Virus record (IMG/VR): IMGVR_UViG_3300041964_000076 | Location: 65,498 to 107,563 of that record | Source: a virus | Reading direction: 5' to 3' (one strand) | Length of the DNA stretch: 42,066 bases | Shown: positions 3,428 to 25,142 of the stretch, piece after piece | How positions within the stretch are numbered: the stretch's first letter is position 1 | Layout of the letters: each line of letters starts with the position of its first letter | The notes under the pieces: generated by a model | Databases searched by the model: none | What the model saw: only the letters and a program-made list of their open reading frames with translations | Told to the model about the DNA's origin: nothing | Program-made: the position numbers and the translations under genes

Positions 3428-3995
3428 ACAACCAAAAAGTCAAAGCGCCGTGCGCTGTCGCAAGCCTGCTTTTGAGAGTGTGATGCAGACGATCGAAGCG
3501 GCAAAGCAAGAAGCGATCGCTACTCAAAAGCGGATGCTAAGAAGCTCGAAATCTGCAATCGTGCTGGCGTTTCTCAGAACTATTTCACATCCAAAAATCC
3601 TAGCGCCCGAACCGCTTTTAAGGCGTATATTGCTGCCAGAGAAGAGGCAGAATTGACCGCAACGAATGTACCCAAGAAAAGAAAGTATGTCTCCGTGAAA
3701 AAACATAAAGAGCCACGCTTGACGTTCAACACTAAAACGCAACCGGAAAAAGTTGAGGTGACAGCAAAGAAGAATTGCAGCGCAAGGAACGGCAGTTACT
3801 AGCCCACCTTGAACGCTTTGGGAGTGTCTATCTTCGCAGCCTGACCTACAACTAAATCTTAGCCCTTCCGATGTGGGTGCAATGGTGCAACGACTGAAGC
3901 GGCAAGGGCTGATTTCAATTAATCAAAGTCCATTTGATAAGACTGGTAATGAAGCGGCGATCGTCTTGGCTAATCAACAGAGGAGGGCAGGTTGA
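3424..3995 (+). CDS. hypothetical protein, broken by frameshifts
   Basis: ATG at 3424 coupled to the upstream stop; fragments include ORF 3450..3656. Confidence 0.4.
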
Positions 3996-4205
3996 ATCAA
4001 CCACTACCAACACCAAACGATCGCCCACATATTACGGATTTGGTCATGCAAGATCTGAGCGATCGTAAAGCCTTGGCATTGCAAGATACAACACGCCACT
4101 ACAACCATTTAACGGCAGAGATAGCTTGCAAGATGCGTATGAGGAAGCAATGGACGAAATTTTCTACATTAAGCAAGCAATTCTTGAAAAGGAGGAGTTA
4201 ATAAA
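3992..4205 (+). CDS. small all-alpha NTP pyrophosphohydrolase-like phage protein (frameshift near 4085)
   Basis: joined frames give MNQPLPTPNDRPHITDLVMQDLSDRKAL..RYNTPLQPFNGRDSLQDAYEEAMDEIFYIKQAILEKEE, a conserved phage family with an EExxD motif; exact 3' end uncertain. Confidence 0.6.
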
Positions 4206-4206
4206 A

Positions 4207-5051
4207 ATGTCTGGAAAAATTGCATATTGTAATTGCGGGCTAAAGTCTCCAGAAAAGGGAGAATTGCAGAAAATGTTTTTTGCTAATACAGTCTTTAAAG
4301 AAAAACACTGCAATCTCTGCCAGGAACTTTTTCAACCAAAATCTGGAGTAGCTATTTGTTTGCAATAAGTGCAAATTTAGCTGTACGAATTGTGGGGAAT
4401 CCAAAAGCGGACAAACCAAATCCAAGTATTGCAAAAATTGTTTGCCACTAGTTTAAGACAGTTCCCCAGGGTTTGCCTTAAGTGTGAATCTTCTTTTTGA
4501 TTCTAATAATAAGTCACGGTTTTGGCAAAACTTGTGATTTAAGCGAAAACCTAAAATTGTGTTGACTGTGGCAAGTCGATCTCTAAAGGGCATTCAAGGT
4601 GCAATAGCTGCTCTTCCAAAAAGAGGTGCAAAGAAAATACCTATCATGGCAAAGGATGGAAAAAGTACGAATACAAAGGGATCAGATACCGCAGCAAATG
4701 GGAAGTGTCAACTGCAACTCTTTTAAAAGAGTTGACTGTTCAATTTGAATACGAAAAGAAAGATCCTGTTACAGGTAAACGCCAGATTTTTATTTCCTGA
4801 CTTGATAGATATTTAGAAATTCATCCTGATATTTATGGAGCAAAATTTTACCGGAGAATTGTGTTTTGGTTAAAACACAAAAACATGCAGAAATTTCGGC
4901 GTTAGCAATTGGGTTTAAATTACAACCAATGCTTGTCGATATTTTTATTGCAAGATGTAGCGATAAAAAGTTAAAAGCTTTAGAAAAAGCCACTTTTGAT
5001 CTATGCGTATATCTTAGGGGATTAATTGAAGAACCGGAGTTGTCAACCTGA
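4207..5051 (+). CDS. PD-(D/E)XK endonuclease with N-terminal CxxC repeats (heavily frameshifted)
   Basis: several CxxC motifs in 4207-4630, then YKGIRYRSKWE...FEYEKK...PDF...YLEIHPD; AT-rich, no HIP1. Confidence 0.6.
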
Positions 5052-9298: not shown

Positions 9299-9378
9299 TA
9301 AAATGGGAAGATTACCGATCGCCTGAATGGGTTCCAGCCACTCAAGCGATCTAACCACCAACCTTATTGGAGAAGGCT
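9299..9378 (+). promoter_or_regulatory. -10 box plus hairpin leader of HNH gene
   Basis: TAAAAT 9299-9304; stem 9317-9330/9338-9351; CTAACC...GGAG..GGCTATG. Confidence 0.5.
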
Positions 9379-9845
9379 ATGGCTGTCCTGATTGTATTAT
9401 CAGATGTAGAGCGGTTACGCTTTGAGCAAAAATCGAGAAAACTGAATCCTGTTGGTTGTGGACTGGCGGCACTTCTAGATTTGGACACGGTAGATTCAGT
9501 GTTAGCGGAAAACTGCAAAGCACTCACCGCATTGCTTATACGTTGGCTTACGGAAAAATCCCAAAAGCCAAGCTTATTTTGCACAAATGTCACAACCCGC
9601 GCTGTGTTAACCCTGGGCATCTTTATGCCGGAACCCACTCTGACAATCAAAAGGACGCGCTAGAAGCTGGTAGATCTAAAGTGCCAGTCCATCTATGGCT
9701 GGACGAAGCTCGTGTTTTAGAGATTAAAGCCTTAGTCAGTTCAGGCTTAAGCTTCCGCGAAGTTGGCAGGCGAACAGGTGTTAATCATTCAACTGTTAGC
9801 AGTATTGTCAAAGGCAAAACAAAAGCCTGGGCGAATGTCGCATAA
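9379..9845 (+). CDS. HNH endonuclease (HNH_3-type) with C-terminal HTH; frameshift near 9430
   Basis: WTGG...HRIAY...ILHKCHNPRCVNPGHL..GT..DN; LSFREVGRRTGVNHSTVSSIVKG. Confidence 0.85.
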
Positions 9846-18951: not shown

Positions 18952-19021
18952 TTAGCCTCCTGAATATATAAAGAATTGCCTAAAAGCATTACTGCTACTA
19001 GGTTTCCAGTTATTCATAAAG

Positions 19022-19114
19022 TAAAATAGTTGTGCAAACACAAATAGCTCAAGGGTCATGATTTGGCGGTCAAAACCTTGAGCTATTCGCTGAAACCAGT
19101 AGAGGTTCTTTTTC
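19022..19114 (+). promoter_or_regulatory. -10 box plus hairpin leader of HNH gene
   Basis: TAAAAT 19022-19027; 12-bp stem AATAGCTCAAGG/CCTTGAGCTATT at 19043-19087; GAGGT SD in a weak second stem. Confidence 0.55.
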
Positions 19115-20020
19115 ATGCTACCCGCTTTTAATCCTGAAGTACATTTTTTAGGCAATCTCTGTAGGCGTAATCACGCTTATGGAGATACGAACAAGACTTT
19201 ACGCTACAGAGCCAACAAGCATTGCTTGACGTGCAGCATTAAAATTAGGCAAGCGAAGCAAAAGCCTAAACCAGTGCGCTACGCTTATTGCCCTTTCCCT
19301 CAGATCGAAGTAAAGAAAGATCGCTACCAACTGGGACAGCTTTGTGTAAATCTGCATGATTGGGGCAATGGTCAAAGCGTTCGATTGTTGAGCAGCAACC
19401 AATGCTTTGAGTGCAGAAGAACGATCCATAAAACGACTTGCAAGACTTACGAAGAAAGAAAGCCTTACTTCCAAATGTGGCAAAGGAACAATCGAGACAA
19501 AGCTAGAGCGGCTCAACGTCGATACCTCGATCGCAATCCTGATTACAACAAAGATTACTATCGCAGAAACAAAGCGGTTGAATTGCCCAAGAAAAACCGC
19601 TATAAGCGAGAGCACCCAGAACTGATGAGGCAGCAGCGTCGATCCTACTATCAGAACAACAAAAGCAAGGTTGCAATAAAAGTCAGAATAAGACAGCAAA
19701 AAATTCTTGCCAACAATCATCATATTGCTTGGAGTCGCCAAGAAGAAATCTTGAGACGGCAAGAATTTGACAATTGCTGCGCTTACTGTTCTATTAGCAA
19801 CCCGATCGCTCTCGATCATTTCATTCCTTTGATAAAAGGCGGCTCTGATTGTATTAGCAACATTGTGCCTGCCTGTACTCGTTGTAATTCTTCCAAGCGC
19901 GATCGTGACCCCAAAGAATGGTATCAACGTCAAGACTTTTTCTCGATAAAAAAGTGGAAACATATCTTGAAAGTGCTTGGGAAAAATGAAGCAAACTACA
20001 GGCAGATAACTTTGTTTTAA
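19115..20020 (+). CDS. HNH endonuclease with duplicated N-terminal Cys/His modules
   Basis: LGNLCRRNH...CLTC and LGQLCVNLH...CFEC; CAYC...DHFIPLIKGGSDCISNIVPACTRCNSSK. Confidence 0.88.
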   Translation: MLPAFNPEVHFLGNLCRRNHAYGDTNKTLRYRANKHCLTCSIKIRQAKQKPKPVRYAYCPFPQIEVKKDRYQLGQLCVNLHDWGNGQSVRLLSSNQCFECRRTIHKTTCKTYEERKPYFQMWQRNNRDKARAAQRRYLDRNPDYNKDYYRRNKAVELPKKNRYKREHPELMRQQRRSYYQNNKSKVAIKVRIRQQKILANNHHIAWSRQEEILRRQEFDNCCAYCSISNPIALDHFIPLIKGGSDCISNIVPACTRCNSSKRDRDPKEWYQRQDFFSIKKWKHILKVLGKNEANYRQITLF

Positions 20021-21145
20021 GCCGTTGGCTTTGAGACATTAATCACGGCTAAACTTTCTGGTTCTTGAATGACGGCTAGCGCCGTCGCGAAGCCTTGAGC
20101 ATCCATCCCCACGGGTTTCATATTGCTAGAGCGTGCCCGAATCACACGACCGGGGCGATCTTCGCCAACGGCAGTACCGATCGCGTAGTAGCCCAGTGTG
20201 TTTTCCACAATCTCAAACTCACCGCCATCTGTCCCGGTCATGAACTCTTCAGTTCGACCTGTTGCAGCACACAAGACCAACGAGCCGCGTGGCTTAAAGA
20301 ACTGAGTACCGAGTTGAGTTCGATAGGTCGTGTCATAGATCTCCATTGCTGGTAAACCCATGTTTCCTGTCAAATAAGCATTGATGGAAGCGGCATCAGC
20401 TAGACCGACGCGAGACGTTAGCCCGCCATTGTTGATACTCAGCATCCCCACTCGCTGCTTCACAGCAGGGTTGTTAGCAAGCGCTGAGAGAATCTGGGTG
20501 TCGCCGATCATTCGATTGACTTGATAGCCTTTGTCAGCCAGCAATGTCACCTGCTTAAAGATGTCATCAAAGGGATCGTAGGTGCCATCGGTTTCGTACC
20601 AACCTGCGGGGTTGCCGACTGTACCACCTGGTACGGTGATGCGATGCCCATCAGGGTTAGAAATGGCAATATCGTAAGGCTCTTCGTCGAGCTGAGAGAT
20701 GGTGATTGTCGCTTTACACATTGCTTGCCAGCGTTGCGCTTCCGCTTTTTCCACTAGTGCCAAATTGCAAGCGATGTTGAGCCAATTAATCAGCGATCGC
20801 TTGGCAGCGTCAGGATTATCAGCGGCAACTCTGCGGATATTATCAAAATCTTTCCCTGTCAGTTGGCGGGCAATATCAATCTCACCCAGTCTCACAGAGA
20901 AACTACCGATCAATTCGCCCTTTTTTCAGTTGCGGTCTGAGTAACGTGTAGCGTCGTTCGCTACCACACTGAAAGTAAACTATTCGATCTTCAGTAAATT
21001 CGTTTCTCGGTACTAGGCGCTCTGGCAGCAGCGTGGCACCTAAGTAGCGTCTCTGTTCTGTACCGAATTGCACCATTGGATTACGAGCGATCGCCATCGG
21101 CTCATCCGACTCGATCAGTTCACGCATCAAACTCCAAATATCCAT
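20017..21145 (-). CDS. major capsid protein (capsid E-like; frameshifted near 20910-20970)
   Basis: GGAGG RBS; ARNPMVQFG..RRYLGATLLPER...; position after scaffold and decoration genes; about 375 aa. Confidence 0.8.
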
Positions 21146-21159
21146 TGTTTCAAGTCCTC

Positions 21160-21835
21160 CTATGCTTGCCCTTTGAGGCAGTTGTATTTTGCTCGAATCA
21201 AACGTCTTCTGGGCGTTGGGAAGACTTGCCCAATTCGGGTAGAAAGTTTTCGTACACAACGTTGCCAGCTTTCGCCATGTACATTTCGCACTCTGGGTCG
21301 TCAAAAGCGTTATGTACGTCAAAGAACAGCAGATGGATCTCGTCGTCTGGTGTCGTTACATCCGCAGGACCATAACCTATGCCCGCCTCACGTTCGGCAT
21401 AAGTGCGACCAATCAAAGTGCCTGCTTCCACATAGAGCGATCGGCTACCGGATGGGTTATAGCTAGCGCTGTCAGTAGCGACTAAAGCTTGTGGCAAGGC
21501 TTCAACAGCGATCGTGGTTGCGCCTTTCATGGCGTTGGCGGTGAGCTTGGCGTACTTGCCCGCACCTGTGAAGTCAAGGAGCGTACCAGCCGGAATCAGA
21601 ATGCTTGTATTGGTCGTTTCGGCGCGGTTATCGGTTAATGCCGTGACCGTGACCGAGGTTGCATTGGCAGCAGCATTGGCACCAACTGTAACGACGATCG
21701 CATTACTGGACGCAGTAAAAGCAGCAGCATTGAGAAATGCGCCACCGGGACGAGTACTTTAGGTTGATGTTGCGGTGTGCCTGACCATGCAGGCGACACC
21801 CGATCGAATGACTTGGCTAAAACGCGAGGACGCAT
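21160..21835 (-). CDS. head decoration protein (frameshifted)
   Basis: SPAWSG...IPAGTLLDF...VEAGTLIGRTYAER..G.GYGPA...LLFFDV...VYENFLP; lies between scaffold and capsid. Confidence 0.7.
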
Positions 21836-21841
21836 AAAAGA

Positions 21842-21961
21842 ACCCTTTGTGTGGGATAGGGGTTGAATCCTTCCCCTCACAAAGGGTCGGTGGCGCTCAC
21901 GGAGCAAAGTGCTTGGCTACACAGTAACCTTAAGTTTTTGAATACAGTCTCATCTGAGACT
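21842..21961. promoter_or_regulatory. RBS-occluding hairpin and palindromic operator-like site upstream of the head genes
   Basis: ACCCTTTGTG/CACAAAGGGT at 21842-21887; AGTCTCA-TC-TGAGACT at 21946-21961. Confidence 0.5.
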
Positions 21962-22774: not shown

Positions 22775-23161
22775 TTAAGTCCAGCGATCGTATAACCTTT
22801 CGCCTTCCAAGTAAAATTCACGTTGACCAGTTCTGACTAAACTCACTATCCAAGCCGATGAATCTTCATGATTTATGGCTTCTAATTCACGGGTCACAGA
22901 ATCAGGAATGCCACCAGGAATACTTTTCCCGTACTCTAAAAGATGGGCTTTGGCTTCAGCGTTTCTTTCTTCTTGCCATGTTTTAATCTTCGCTTTGACA
23001 GTGTCGCCATCCAAACTGAAGCGATCGGCGAGATGTTGAATGAGCCATATCTTAGCATCTTCATTTGTTAAAGTTGGTGCTTTCTCTGGCTTGGATGGTA
23101 GCCCAAAACCCTCCTCTCTTAACACTTCACTAGCTAGGCTTGGCTCAGGGGTGTCGTTCAT
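22775..23161 (-). CDS. hypothetical protein
   Basis: 128-aa ORF. Confidence 0.65.
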   Translation of the reverse strand: MNDTPEPSLASEVLREEGFGLPSKPEKAPTLTNEDAKIWLIQHLADRFSLDGDTVKAKIKTWQEERNAEAKAHLLEYGKSIPGGIPDSVTRELEAINHEDSSAWIVSLVRTGQREFYLEGERLYDRWT

Positions 23162-23163
23162 TG

Positions 23164-23244
23164 CTAACCTGCTAAAAGATTGCTGCTATCAATATTAAGC
23201 GATCGCGGTTTCTTCCAGACCACAAGACAACGGCATCGGGGCAA
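23164..23244 (-). pseudogene. stranded 3' end of the gpF-like gene
   Basis: translates LPRCRCLVVWKKPRSLNIDSSNLLAG* versus the current gpF end CKCRISWRRSLINLSTNK*. Confidence 0.65.
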
Positions 23245-23245
23245 C

Positions 23246-24025
23246 TTAAGCCGCCCATGACTTACCACAAGCAGGACATATATAACGCTGGTTACCTTGC
23301 CTGTCTTTTGAATGCTTGTATGGAGCAAGGTTAGTGTTGCAGTGGTTGGTAGGCGTGTTTATCTCTCTAAACTTAACAGGCTCGGTAAAAGCTTTGTCAA
23401 GATCCCAACCATACCTATCAATTCGGCTCAAAAGCGTCCCCAAAGGAATACCAGTTTCATCTGCCCAGTCTGATGCGGCTTGTGTTCTACCATCCCAAGT
23501 CAACATTCTAGTTGTAGACCTGTTTCTGGCTTGCCTAGACCAAGTAGCCCACCGACAGTTAGACGGCTCGTAATCTCCATTACTATCAATCCTGTCCAAG
23601 GTCAACCCGTTAGGCGCTTCACCCATGTCAGTCAAAAAGTTTTCAAAACTGCGAAACCAGCGATCGCAAACCTTGATACCTTTACCGCCATACAAATGCC
23701 AGAAATCACGGTCAGGGTTGTAACATCTTGTCAGCATTCCTTGGTAGATTCTGTAAGTACGAGTAACAGAGCTCTGACTGGTGTGCCCATGTGTAATTCT
23801 CTTTTTGTTCAAGAGCGGAGTAACGCATCCGCAGCTTTTGACTGCACCACTAAGTAGATTGCTGCTAGCTACTTGCGTTGTCTTCCCGCAATCGCACAAG
23901 CATTCCCAATAGTGCGATCGTGCCTTTATGTCTGTCCTCACTCCAACGTGTCGAACAGCCGTCAAAATTCCAAACTTTTGCCCAAGGACATTTTTTACCC
24001 GTTTAGGCAATGTAAGATCATTCAT
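23246..24025 (-). CDS. HNH homing endonuclease with C-terminal Zn ribbon
   Basis: WECLCDCG, KSCGC, RCYNP...YGGKGIKVCDRW..FENFL.DMG...TLDRIDSNGDYEPSNCRWAT..QARN; QRYICPACGK. Confidence 0.9.
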   Translation of the reverse strand: MNDLTLPKRVKNVLGQKFGILTAVRHVGVRTDIKARSHYWECLCDCGKTTQVASSNLLSGAVKSCGCVTPLLNKKRITHGHTSQSSVTRTYRIYQGMLTRCYNPDRDFWHLYGGKGIKVCDRWFRSFENFLTDMGEAPNGLTLDRIDSNGDYEPSNCRWATWSRQARNRSTTRMLTWDGRTQAASDWADETGIPLGTLLSRIDRYGWDLDKAFTEPVKFREINTPTNHCNTNLAPYKHSKDRQGNQRYICPACGKSWAA

Positions 24026-24105
24026 AGCTCACCTACTGATACTAGGATGTAGTTAGGCGCTAAAGAAGATTCGCTGTCTTCTTTAGCGCTGCTATTAATA
24101 TTTTA
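24026..24105 (-). promoter_or_regulatory. -10 box plus hairpin leader of HNH gene
   Basis: TAAAAT 24105-24100; 13-bp perfect stem 24057-24089; CTAAC...AGGTGAGCTATG. Confidence 0.55.
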
Positions 24106-24107
24106 AG

Positions 24108-24767
24108 CTATTTATTCGTTGAAAGGTTGATCAAAGATCGCCTCCAGGATATTCGGCATTTGCAGTTCGACCTACACGAACAGTCCGCCCCAGTCGGCTT
24201 TACATCTTGCGCTGGAATCCATTGCCCTTTAGTGTCGTACTCTATGCATTCCTGGCAATGCTGCGCGGCTGCGTCTAACGATCTTAGGGCTTGAAAATTA
24301 TCTCTAATCCGTGTCACTTTCTCAGCTTGATGGAATGATAGGGCAGTCGATCGCCCATACTGTGATGCTCTCGCCAAAGCTTGCTTCTCGGTAACTTCTC
24401 CTCTGGCTAAAGCCTGTGCAAACTGGTCGATCGCCTGATACTCTTTCGCCAACCTACTACCGACAAAACCATACTGCTGCTGGGTCATCTGGAGCTTGCC
24501 ACCACTGCCCATAAGGGCTTGCCTTAAGTGGCTACTCTTGACGCTAGCTGCCATCCGTTCTTGCCATTCAGAGAGGCTGATTTTGCCCGATGCCATCAAC
24601 CGTGTGTGCCCTTGCAGTTGGAGCGCTGTGCGCTGTGCCTCTGTGTCAACGACTTGCAGGACGGTGGCGCGATCGACAAAGCGTTTACTCTGAGCGTTGC
24701 GGAATTGCCCTAGAGTCTTGACGTATTCCAGTGTCGTGCGAGTGCCACCAATGAGTTGTGCTGTCAT
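24108..24767 (-). CDS. minor head morphogenesis protein (Mu gpF/SPP1 gp7-like)
   Basis: downstream of portal; HCQEC...PTGADCSCRSNCKC C-terminal motif. Confidence 0.7.
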   Translation of the reverse strand: MTAQLIGGTRTTLEYVKTLGQFRNAQSKRFVDRATVLQVVDTEAQRTALQLQGHTRLMASGKISLSEWQERMAASVKSSHLRQALMGSGGKLQMTQQQYGFVGSRLAKEYQAIDQFAQALARGEVTEKQALARASQYGRSTALSFHQAEKVTRIRDNFQALRSLDAAAQHCQECIEYDTKGQWIPAQDVKPTGADCSCRSNCKCRISWRRSLINLSTNK

Positions 24768-24958
24768 CCCGTTGACTTGTCTATAGAGTCTCTAAAAGCT
24801 TTTGCCATAGCCCTCATTTGATCTAACGATACTGGGCTAGCGCTGCTACTTTCACGCCTGCCCAATTCAGCCTTGTAAGCCAAAAGATCTTGCATTGGAT
24901 TGCCCTTTTGCTTCCCCCAATCTTGATGACTGGCACCGCTCTTATTTTTCTTGCTCAT
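24764..24958 (-). CDS. small hypothetical protein
   Basis: MSKKNKSG...; ATGA-coupled to the gpF-like gene. Confidence 0.45.
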   Translation of the reverse strand: MSKKNKSGASHQDWGKQKGNPMQDLLAYKAELGRRESSSASPVSLDQMRAMAKAFRDSIDKSTG

Positions 24959-24962
24959 ATTT

Positions 24963-25142
24963 TCACCGATTCGCCGCATCAATATATTTCACAATCTCTT
25001 TGTCGCCTTCAGCGATCGCCCGGTTCACGTCGCCCTGAGTTAGGACAACTTCACCGCGATCGTTAGTCGCCTGCGTCTCTGCGATTGAGATAGGCTTGCC
25101 AACCGGTTTGATTGTTGGCTGTGGTTCCGGTTGTTCCGCCAT
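24963..25142 (-). CDS. 59-aa hypothetical protein (MAEQPEPQPTIKPVG...)
   Basis: open frame translated by hand; below the ORF-track cutoff. Confidence 0.5.
   Translation of the reverse strand: MAEQPEPQPTIKPVGKPISIAETQATNDRGEVVLTQGDVNRAIAEGDKEIVKYIDAANR

Follow-up and report, generated by a model that had tools for sequence, protein, structure and literature searches.

A probable homing-endonuclease cassette with a replacement 3' end in the minor-head-like gene of a cyanophage

The stretch of DNA analysed here, referred to throughout as the window, comprises 42,066 nucleotides (nt) of the viral record IMGVR_UViG_3300041964_000076 (IMG/VR, positions 65,498 to 107,563), and the locus of interest is a gpF-like (minor-head, MuF/gp7-like) gene of a cyanophage together with the HNH gene that directly follows it. 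On the minus strand, a 533-residue gene in the portal position is followed by several small genes and then by the gpF-like gene (24108-24767, 219 amino acids (aa), ending ...CKCRISWRRSLINLSTNK*; matched to phrog_24776, for which PHROG gives the function as unknown), an 82-nt spacer, the 259-residue HNH gene, 7 nt, a 75-nt remnant of a gpF-like gene end, the dinucleotide CA and the ATG of a 128-residue gene, after which come a scaffold-like gene and the capsid gene. The cassette, which contains no intron, is made up of the HNH-superfamily gene, its hairpin leader and, in front of these, a 3' end for the target gene that is diverged yet complete and in frame. Its parts and neighbours are as follows, L001 being an IMG/VR contig that carries an uninterrupted relative of the gpF-like gene.

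24300..24767, minus strand: native core, codons 1-156, of the gpF-like (minor head or head-morphogenesis-like) gene; 98.1% nt identity, gapless, to L001 6001-6468
24108..24299, minus strand: foreign in-frame replacement 3' end of the same gene, codons 157-219 and stop; first 132 nt 47% identical to L001 6469-6600
24026..24107, minus strand: leader of the HNH gene, with TAAAAT at 24100-24105, a perfect 13-bp hairpin at 24057-24089 and the Shine-Dalgarno sequence AGGTGA before the ATG
23246..24025, minus strand: gene for a 259-residue HNH-superfamily (His-Me finger) endonuclease-like protein with a PacI-like active-site variant, assigned from PHROG profiles and fold
23239..23245, minus strand: 7-nt filler GTTGCCC, right edge of the cassette; missing in L001, with homology restarting at 23238
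23164..23238, minus strand: stranded native 3' end of the gpF-like gene, 24 codons and TAG, untranslated; 75 of 75 nt identical to L001 6601-6675
22775..23161, minus strand: 128-residue downstream gene, an unchanged neighbour; 127 of 128 aa identical to L001 6678-7064

The HNH gene has its own leader, start and stop (TAA, followed by the 7-nt filler), and its open reading frame (ORF) is separate from that of the host gene, so that it lies inside neither an intron nor an intein. The remnant reads RCRCLVVWKKPRSLNIDSSNLLAG* (RCRCLVVWKK...LLAG and a stop) in a frame that is +1 relative to the HNH gene and has no plausible start, and the 54-residue ORF spanning it has no homologue on record. It lies outside any gene and preserves the native junction to the 128-residue gene.

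An earlier note on this DNA had described an HNH cassette in the gpF-like gene with the old 3' end stranded downstream, and the ORFs and the sequence are as it described them. The remnant is not a chance motif match, because all 75 of its nucleotides are identical to the end of the uninterrupted gene in L001; the stranded end as first given was two codons too long, its opening 'LP' being cassette or junction sequence and the other 75 nt being native. Seven relatives of the 219-residue protein were found, of which P0002 (224 aa, 83% identical) ends exactly with the stranded peptide; scans of genome contigs returned no gpF relatives, and a second viral scan re-found only the contig of L001. In L001 the P0002-type gene runs without interruption through this tail to its stop, followed by CA and the ATG of the 128-residue gene, and a second head module within the 107,563-bp record from which the window was taken (G000:C1:2002-9348, 84-88% identical) is an empty allele as well. 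Two independent empty alleles thus exist, L001 and the second copy, and both end ...CRCLVVWKKPRSLN... directly before the 128-residue gene, as had been predicted for HNH-less relatives; the contrary outcome, empty alleles that have the hybrid type of end and lack the segment 23164-23244, was seen in neither. In an alignment the tails of P0003-P0005 are of the same type as that of P0002, and the odd tail ...SLINLSTNK is limited to the window and one further protein, P0001 (97% identical).

DNA alignment and blastn place the breakpoints between the window and L001 at 24300/24299 and 23239/23238. Between them the window has 1061 nt (23239-24299) and L001 has 132 nt; identity is 98.1% over 468 nt to the left of the first breakpoint and 96.7% over 3.2 kb to the right of the second. 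An in-frame alignment of the 132 nt of L001 with the opening 132 nt of the block in the window gives 47% nt identity, and 22 of 44 residues are shared. With 132 nt lost and 1061 nt gained, the event amounts to a replacement and not to a pure insertion. At the right junction, native sequence resumes with the codon that precedes the first Cys of the CxC motif, so that the break falls ahead of both Cys residues and not between them, a correction to the earlier proposal of an insertion into that motif. The second copy loses and regains homology to the window at the very positions found with L001 (23238 and 24300); in that copy one base beside the junction and the last of the remnant's next 13 bases differ from L001, and the gpF tail contains a stop (CGA-to-TGA) and indels.

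At the protein level, residues 1-155 are 97% identical to P0002 and residues 156-219 (64 aa from D156) are 47% identical, and over the latter the best of the remaining relatives reaches only 52-55%. This drop from 97% to 47% indicates that the 3' end in the window was imported. The same polarity, with the uninterrupted form ancestral, follows from the contiguous layout and the type of 132-nt segment that the two empty lineages share; distant relatives also have the native type of tail, and the window retains it as the remnant, which likewise argues that the uninterrupted form came first. The HNH gene is missing from L001 and from the second copy; the window has it, and so does an independent contig of 9,696 bp. 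No gene of the 259-residue HNH family was found in the record of L001, which is only a fragment.

By cluster look-up, the hybrid gpF-like protein P0001 and the HNH protein P0129 are encoded together on this 9,696-bp contig, at 97% and 95% identity, respectively, to their counterparts in the window and with the same lengths and ends. P0129 is a protein of 259 residues with 12 differences from that of the window, 10 of which fall within residues 191-254, the putative DNA-binding part, and its C-terminal end is identical. Because this contig carries the cassette, the latter is not private to the assembly of the window and is old enough for 3-5% divergence. The same contig bears on the possibility that a metagenome assembly prone to errors created the junctions of the cassette as chimeric joins. 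Irregularities of the kind that would favour such joins are present nearby: relative to L001, about nine one-base indels within 3.2 kb, located at window 20017-21907 and several of them in short homopolymers, have broken up the capsid gene, which encodes 376 aa in L001, into ORFs of 139 and 298 aa, the 224-residue gene upstream is also broken, and further copies of the head module, diverged and inverted, are present in the record. These indels are either sequencing errors or the marks of a decaying copy, and the 107-kb record may join haplotypes or tandem relatives. The independent contig nevertheless makes an artefact unlikely, since it encodes the same hybrid gene with the same odd tail and the same 259-residue HNH protein at 95-97% and not 100% identity; reading frames and gene signals are, moreover, intact across both junctions, and a chimeric origin of the cassette is barely credible. 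At the end of the record (C1:106478-107563) there is an inverted 92% copy of the portal region.

The target is called gpF-like on grounds of fold and gene order, which make the label a reasonable one, unproven as membership of the PF04233 family. Like Mu gpF and SPP1 gp7 (PF04233), the gene has its place after the portal gene, between portal and scaffold, and its predicted fold may resemble those of minor capsid and head morphogenesis proteins: matches so named in BFVD have E values of 1e-4 to 1e-2 and template modelling (TM) scores of 0.3-0.5, some of them fused to portals or toxins, and an Atlas lead for PF04233 stands at 0.93. Unlike those proteins, it has no match to a sequence model of the family. 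Eight family members gave no match to PF04233 at an E value of 1 or better, a PF04233 search of the record misses the gene, no NCBIfam model matches the protein, and Foldseek found nothing for its model in the PDB. The name used in the earlier note therefore agrees with fold and synteny but not with PF04233 or NCBIfam. The AlphaFold2 (AF2) model of the protein has a predicted local distance difference test (pLDDT) score of 94.9 with the imported part included, and of 97-98 up to residue 210. A profile search returned 3,815 clusters of relatives, mostly of about 200-220 aa and ending soon after the CxC motif, and 79 diverse family members all have C171, C174, C198 and C204, and at least 90% of them have C202; the imported 3' end retains all of the family-invariant Cys residues. 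Judged by this conservation, the right junction lies in the most constrained part of the gpF-like gene. Homing endonucleases typically target strongly constrained gene sites.

Several relatives of the gpF-like protein are longer (P0160, P0171, P0173 and P0204, 430-530 aa) and have DRAT-like ADP-ribosyltransferase, ATLF-like or PI3/PI4-kinase-like domains C-terminal to the CxC tail, a layout with a C-terminal cargo domain that is known from MuF polymorphic toxins. At L003 4561-5097 (minus strand), a gpF relative of 42% identity is accompanied by an HNH gene of the same family (39% identical), which lies at a different site, some 900 bp upstream of gpF and in the opposite orientation. The interval between portal and gpF has the appearance of a cassette hotspot: the gene directly upstream of gpF is wholly different in the window (24764-24982, 72 aa) and in L001 (5744-6004, 86 aa), and L001 has an extra 109-residue gene after the portal gene.

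The 259-residue protein matches PHROG families annotated as HNH endonuclease (phrog_374 at 5.9e-66 and phrog_3377 at 1.2e-52, the HNH families spanning 1e-31 to 6e-66), and no Pfam HNH model matches it at an E value of 0.01 or better. Its family is very large, with 7,674 matches at 90% clustering among the 5.8 billion proteins searched. Throughout 79 sequences, R145 occupies the position of the catalytic (general-base) His and is invariant, as are Y152 and N156, and N168 is present at 90% or more. The AF2 model (pLDDT 87.6) has a beta-beta-alpha unit at residues 142-167, in which a loop holding Y152 joins strands 142-145 and 157-160, and N168 directly follows helix 162-167. The top match among 48,161 PDB representatives is PacI (3m7k; Z score 6.2, root-mean-square deviation 3.1, 80 residues, residues 78-172, 20% identity). 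PacI represents group 20 of the His-Me finger proteins, a class without the catalytic His in which a Tyr of the omega loop takes over (Jablonska et al. 2017, PMC5714182), and the window's family has the same pattern of substitution, with a Tyr (Y152) in the omega loop, an Asn (N168) at the helix, putatively for the metal, and an invariant residue other than His at the His site. By analogy with this class (PMC5714182), Y152 and N168 would have catalytic roles, and the model makes nuclease activity of the protein plausible.

The flanks of the enzyme differ from PacI, consisting of an N-terminal SH3/Tudor-like barrel with CxC...CGC motifs and, on the C-terminal side, a Zn-ribbon-like tail preceded by a helical repeat of DNA-binding-like character. 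Over its last 22 residues the protein is similar to an IS1/IS1595-type Zn-binding motif, with a score of 26.2 bits against a cut-off of 28; this fits better than a C2H2 zinc-finger reading of the C-terminus, which was dropped, as was the idea that the junction had truncated the HNH gene. The tail (residues 223-259, window 23246-23356) is unique to this lineage, the nearest relatives carrying a second helical repeat instead.

The position of the HNH gene inside the head-gene block, between portal and scaffold or capsid, would also suit a domesticated helper of virion assembly or packaging, the layout then being a stable feature of the operon and not a mobile one; HNH proteins are found near terminase and portal in some cos phages. 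A helper gene would, however, need neither a foreign gene end nor a stranded native end, and the gene is missing both from a relative of 97-98% identity and from the second copy, in which the rest of the module is kept. Because close relatives do without the HNH gene, such a role is highly improbable.

The leader of the HNH gene has a predicted folding energy of -28.5 kcal/mol (z score -3.9), and the minimum free energy structure also pairs the region of the gpF stop with the Shine-Dalgarno and start region of the HNH gene. A scan of the leader detected no T-run terminator and no sigma-70 promoter above chance, and Rfam yielded no intron, just a sub-threshold chance match on the hairpin. Of the intron-less mobile unit proposed earlier (replacement 3' end, promoter/hairpin and HNH gene), the gene end, the hairpin, the HNH gene and the lack of an intron are upheld, and the promoter is less well supported. 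A succession of TAAAAT, a 10-14-bp hairpin and a ribosome-binding site precedes all three HNH genes of the window (starting at 9379 and 19115 on the plus strand and at 24025 on the minus strand, with leaders at 9299-9378, 19022-19114 and 24026-24105). TAAAAT is not enriched across the window (22 matches, 28.5 expected), and by a rough estimate the chance of finding it in all three leaders is about 2e-5. As a lead, TAAAAT and the hairpin may constitute a shared promoter or regulatory leader of the endonuclease genes.

Among these genes, that at 19115-20020 on the plus strand is unrelated to the HNH gene of the cassette and has a canonical motif, with a weak IscB/Cas9-type HNH match. The block that contains it (18962-20023, 1062 bp) corresponds to 5 nt in L001 and abuts the stop of the capsid gene, the last 30 nt of which have seven mostly synonymous differences from L001, like a co-conversion tract. 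The present/absent pattern of this second HNH gene and the clustered synonymous changes in the capsid gene suggest that endonuclease-linked conversion is recurrent in this phage group. Elsewhere in the window, at 3992-5051, the ORF list shows only short, possibly frameshifted ORFs.

The structure in the 3' part of the minor-head-like gene is probably a free-standing 'gene-end-replacing' homing-endonuclease cassette. Its flank is diverged in the manner of a co-converted tract, with a 132-nt stretch of 47% identity amid flanks of 97-98% and a cluster of mismatches at 24342-24369: of the nine mismatches to L001 in the left flank, five fall in this cluster, no more than 70 nt from the junction, and none in the next 310 nt. 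A unit of this composition is known from the WHO elements of Torulaspora and Lachancea yeasts, in which a 3' end of the target gene, resistant to the enzyme, lies upstream of an endonuclease gene (Coughlan et al. 2020, eLife, PMC7282813). In WHO homing the sensitive allele is cut and repaired from the filled allele, whereby the old 3' end becomes a downstream fragment that starts at the cut and acts as the right homology arm in later homing (PMC7282813).

In the phage, the cut made by the enzyme in an uninterrupted allele would fall where the remnant begins or close by, a little 5' of the codons for the conserved CxC, and a co-infecting phage with the cassette would serve as the template for repair. 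On the left, recombination would take place within the conserved core, with a crossover at about 24300-24370, and the right end would pair with the donor's own stranded fragment as a homology arm, as in the WHO model; alternatively, at a first entry from a distant phage, the right end may have been joined illegitimately by one-sided repair, as for T4 introns. For T4, one-sided illegitimate double-strand-break repair, with homology on one side and microhomology junctions, is summarised by Edgell et al. (2010, PMC2988022, citing Parker et al. 1999). A first entry would hardly have used homology on the right side, because the donor gene end is only about 50% identical; the distribution of mismatches in the left flank suggests that the cassette last came from a fairly closely related phage already in possession of it, with a crossover near 24370. 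The imported 3' end, presumed to be an endonuclease-resistant version of the target, would change about half of the bases around the target and so make the new allele immune while the protein stays whole, for which reason neither an intron nor an intein would be needed. The remnant may be a working homology arm or a scar, and either way it keeps the native upstream context of the 128-residue gene.

Several observations weigh against this interpretation. No donor was found in viral, metagenome and genome contigs or among the 5.8 billion proteins, the nearest other HNH protein being 59-60% identical and at most 45% identical where found in loci; an exact 20-mer of the foreign tail has 0 matches in viral contigs, and blastn against the INPHARED phages gave short matches to the HNH core only. 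A search by regular expression for a second CxC tail downstream, covering 28 gpF loci, detected it in the window only, and the layout is present in none of the 28 related loci; a script for finding duplicated ends of upstream genes downstream of other HNH genes was too noisy, and scored the true case itself poorly. The record holds an empty allele alongside the filled one, so that if it is truly one genome the empty allele is not being converted, and otherwise the record joins population variants; its many 1-nt indels and duplicated, haplotype-like arms show the quality of the assembly to be imperfect. On the side of the enzyme, the canonical His is replaced throughout the family, the Z score of the match to PacI is below the level of a safe fold match, and Foldseek found nothing in the PDB for the HNH model.

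Some of these points are shared by an account in terms of passive mosaicism, according to which ordinary recombination between phages, homeologous on the left and illegitimate on the right, brought in a foreign gene end and, with it, an HNH-like passenger gene whose protein has no share in its own spread and may be an inactive or purely DNA-binding relic. The missing canonical His, the lack of any known activity and the lack of a donor are as this account would have them; the concentration of 10 of the 12 allele differences of the HNH protein in residues 191-254 could reflect relaxed constraint, and neighbouring small genes have also been swapped between the window and L001 without a nuclease. 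Mere mosaicism does not, however, lead one to expect a breakpoint at the most conserved codons of the target together with a replacement end that is full and functional-looking, nor an HNH ORF that is intact and of equal length in two alleles, nor a family of more than 7,600 members with invariant Y152 and N156 and a near-invariant N168, nor an unrelated second HNH gene that has the same present/absent pattern and a conversion-like tract. Passive mosaicism is accordingly rather unlikely, and the homing cassette is the preferred interpretation in what follows.

As such, the cassette shares with WHO elements its layout, an identity to empty alleles that drops from high to low on passing the site in the 5'-to-3' direction, and the lack of splicing. 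WHO elements have intein-derived LAGLIDADG/zinc-finger enzymes, operate in meiosis on a nuclear aldolase gene and occur in tandem clusters, whereas the window has a single cassette with an HNH-superfamily enzyme in a head gene of a phage, where cleavage is what we infer. Mobile open reading frame (mORF) gene hybrids, for which the account of Beaudet et al. (2013, PMC3630166, citing Paquin et al. 1994) names atp6 of Allomyces macrogynus and atp6, atp9, cox2 and nad3 of Glomus, are similar in that a foreign C-terminal part in frame with the native core is followed by the endonuclease ORF and then by the native C-terminal part (PMC3630166), the native part being near-identical to close relatives and the inserted part strongly diverged. 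They differ in their location in organelle genomes, in their LAGLIDADG or GIY-YIG enzymes and in the occasional in-frame fusion of the ORF, whereas in the window a separate stop closes the gene end and a separate leader precedes the endonuclease gene. Because the enzyme of the window matches PHROG HNH families only, and not LAGLIDADG, intein-derived or GIY-YIG enzymes, the cassette would work like WHO elements and mORFs but is not their homologue.

Among phages, the free-standing endonucleases of the T4 type (seg, mob) are likewise intron-less, are situated beside or between conserved phage genes and bring about co-conversion of flanking markers (PMC2988022), but in the T4 cases the insertion is intergenic or leaves a gene as two functional pieces, and a stranded duplicate end is not usual. 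In ICP1-like and other phages, small genes beside homing-endonuclease genes have been recognised as fragments of essential cargo genes and proposed as recombination substrates (Barth et al. 2023 preprint, PMC10055350); that work is on the scale of islands, whereas for the window single-base resolution extends to the replaced segment, its two breakpoints and the alleles with and without the cassette. The cassette is not a new system: its kind is known from yeast nuclei and fungal mitochondria, and fragments of essential genes beside phage endonucleases are known too, the window being a fully resolved phage example with an HNH-superfamily enzyme.

The locus provides a base-resolved natural before/after pair for the entry of an endonuclease gene into an essential phage coding sequence without an intron or an intein. 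The start of the remnant amounts to a precise prediction of the cut site, and the enzyme represents a branch of the HNH superfamily that is huge, uncharacterised and devoid of the canonical histidine. For genome annotation there is a twofold warning, that the 3' ends of head genes may have a history other than that of their cores, and that short 'orphan' gene ends beside nuclease genes are footprints and not genes. A broader and more tentative proposal, which we put forward as possible and somewhat doubtful, is that homing of the WHO type operates in tailed phages, with a very large HNH family that lacks both Pfam matches and the catalytic His (PacI-like, Tyr-using) spreading by means of resistant ends that replace those of essential virion genes, the stranded end being the obligatory right homology arm. 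If that were true, it would constitute a third, splicing-free route by which endonuclease genes enter phage coding sequences, and the chimeric evolution of the 3' ends of head genes would be a driven process.

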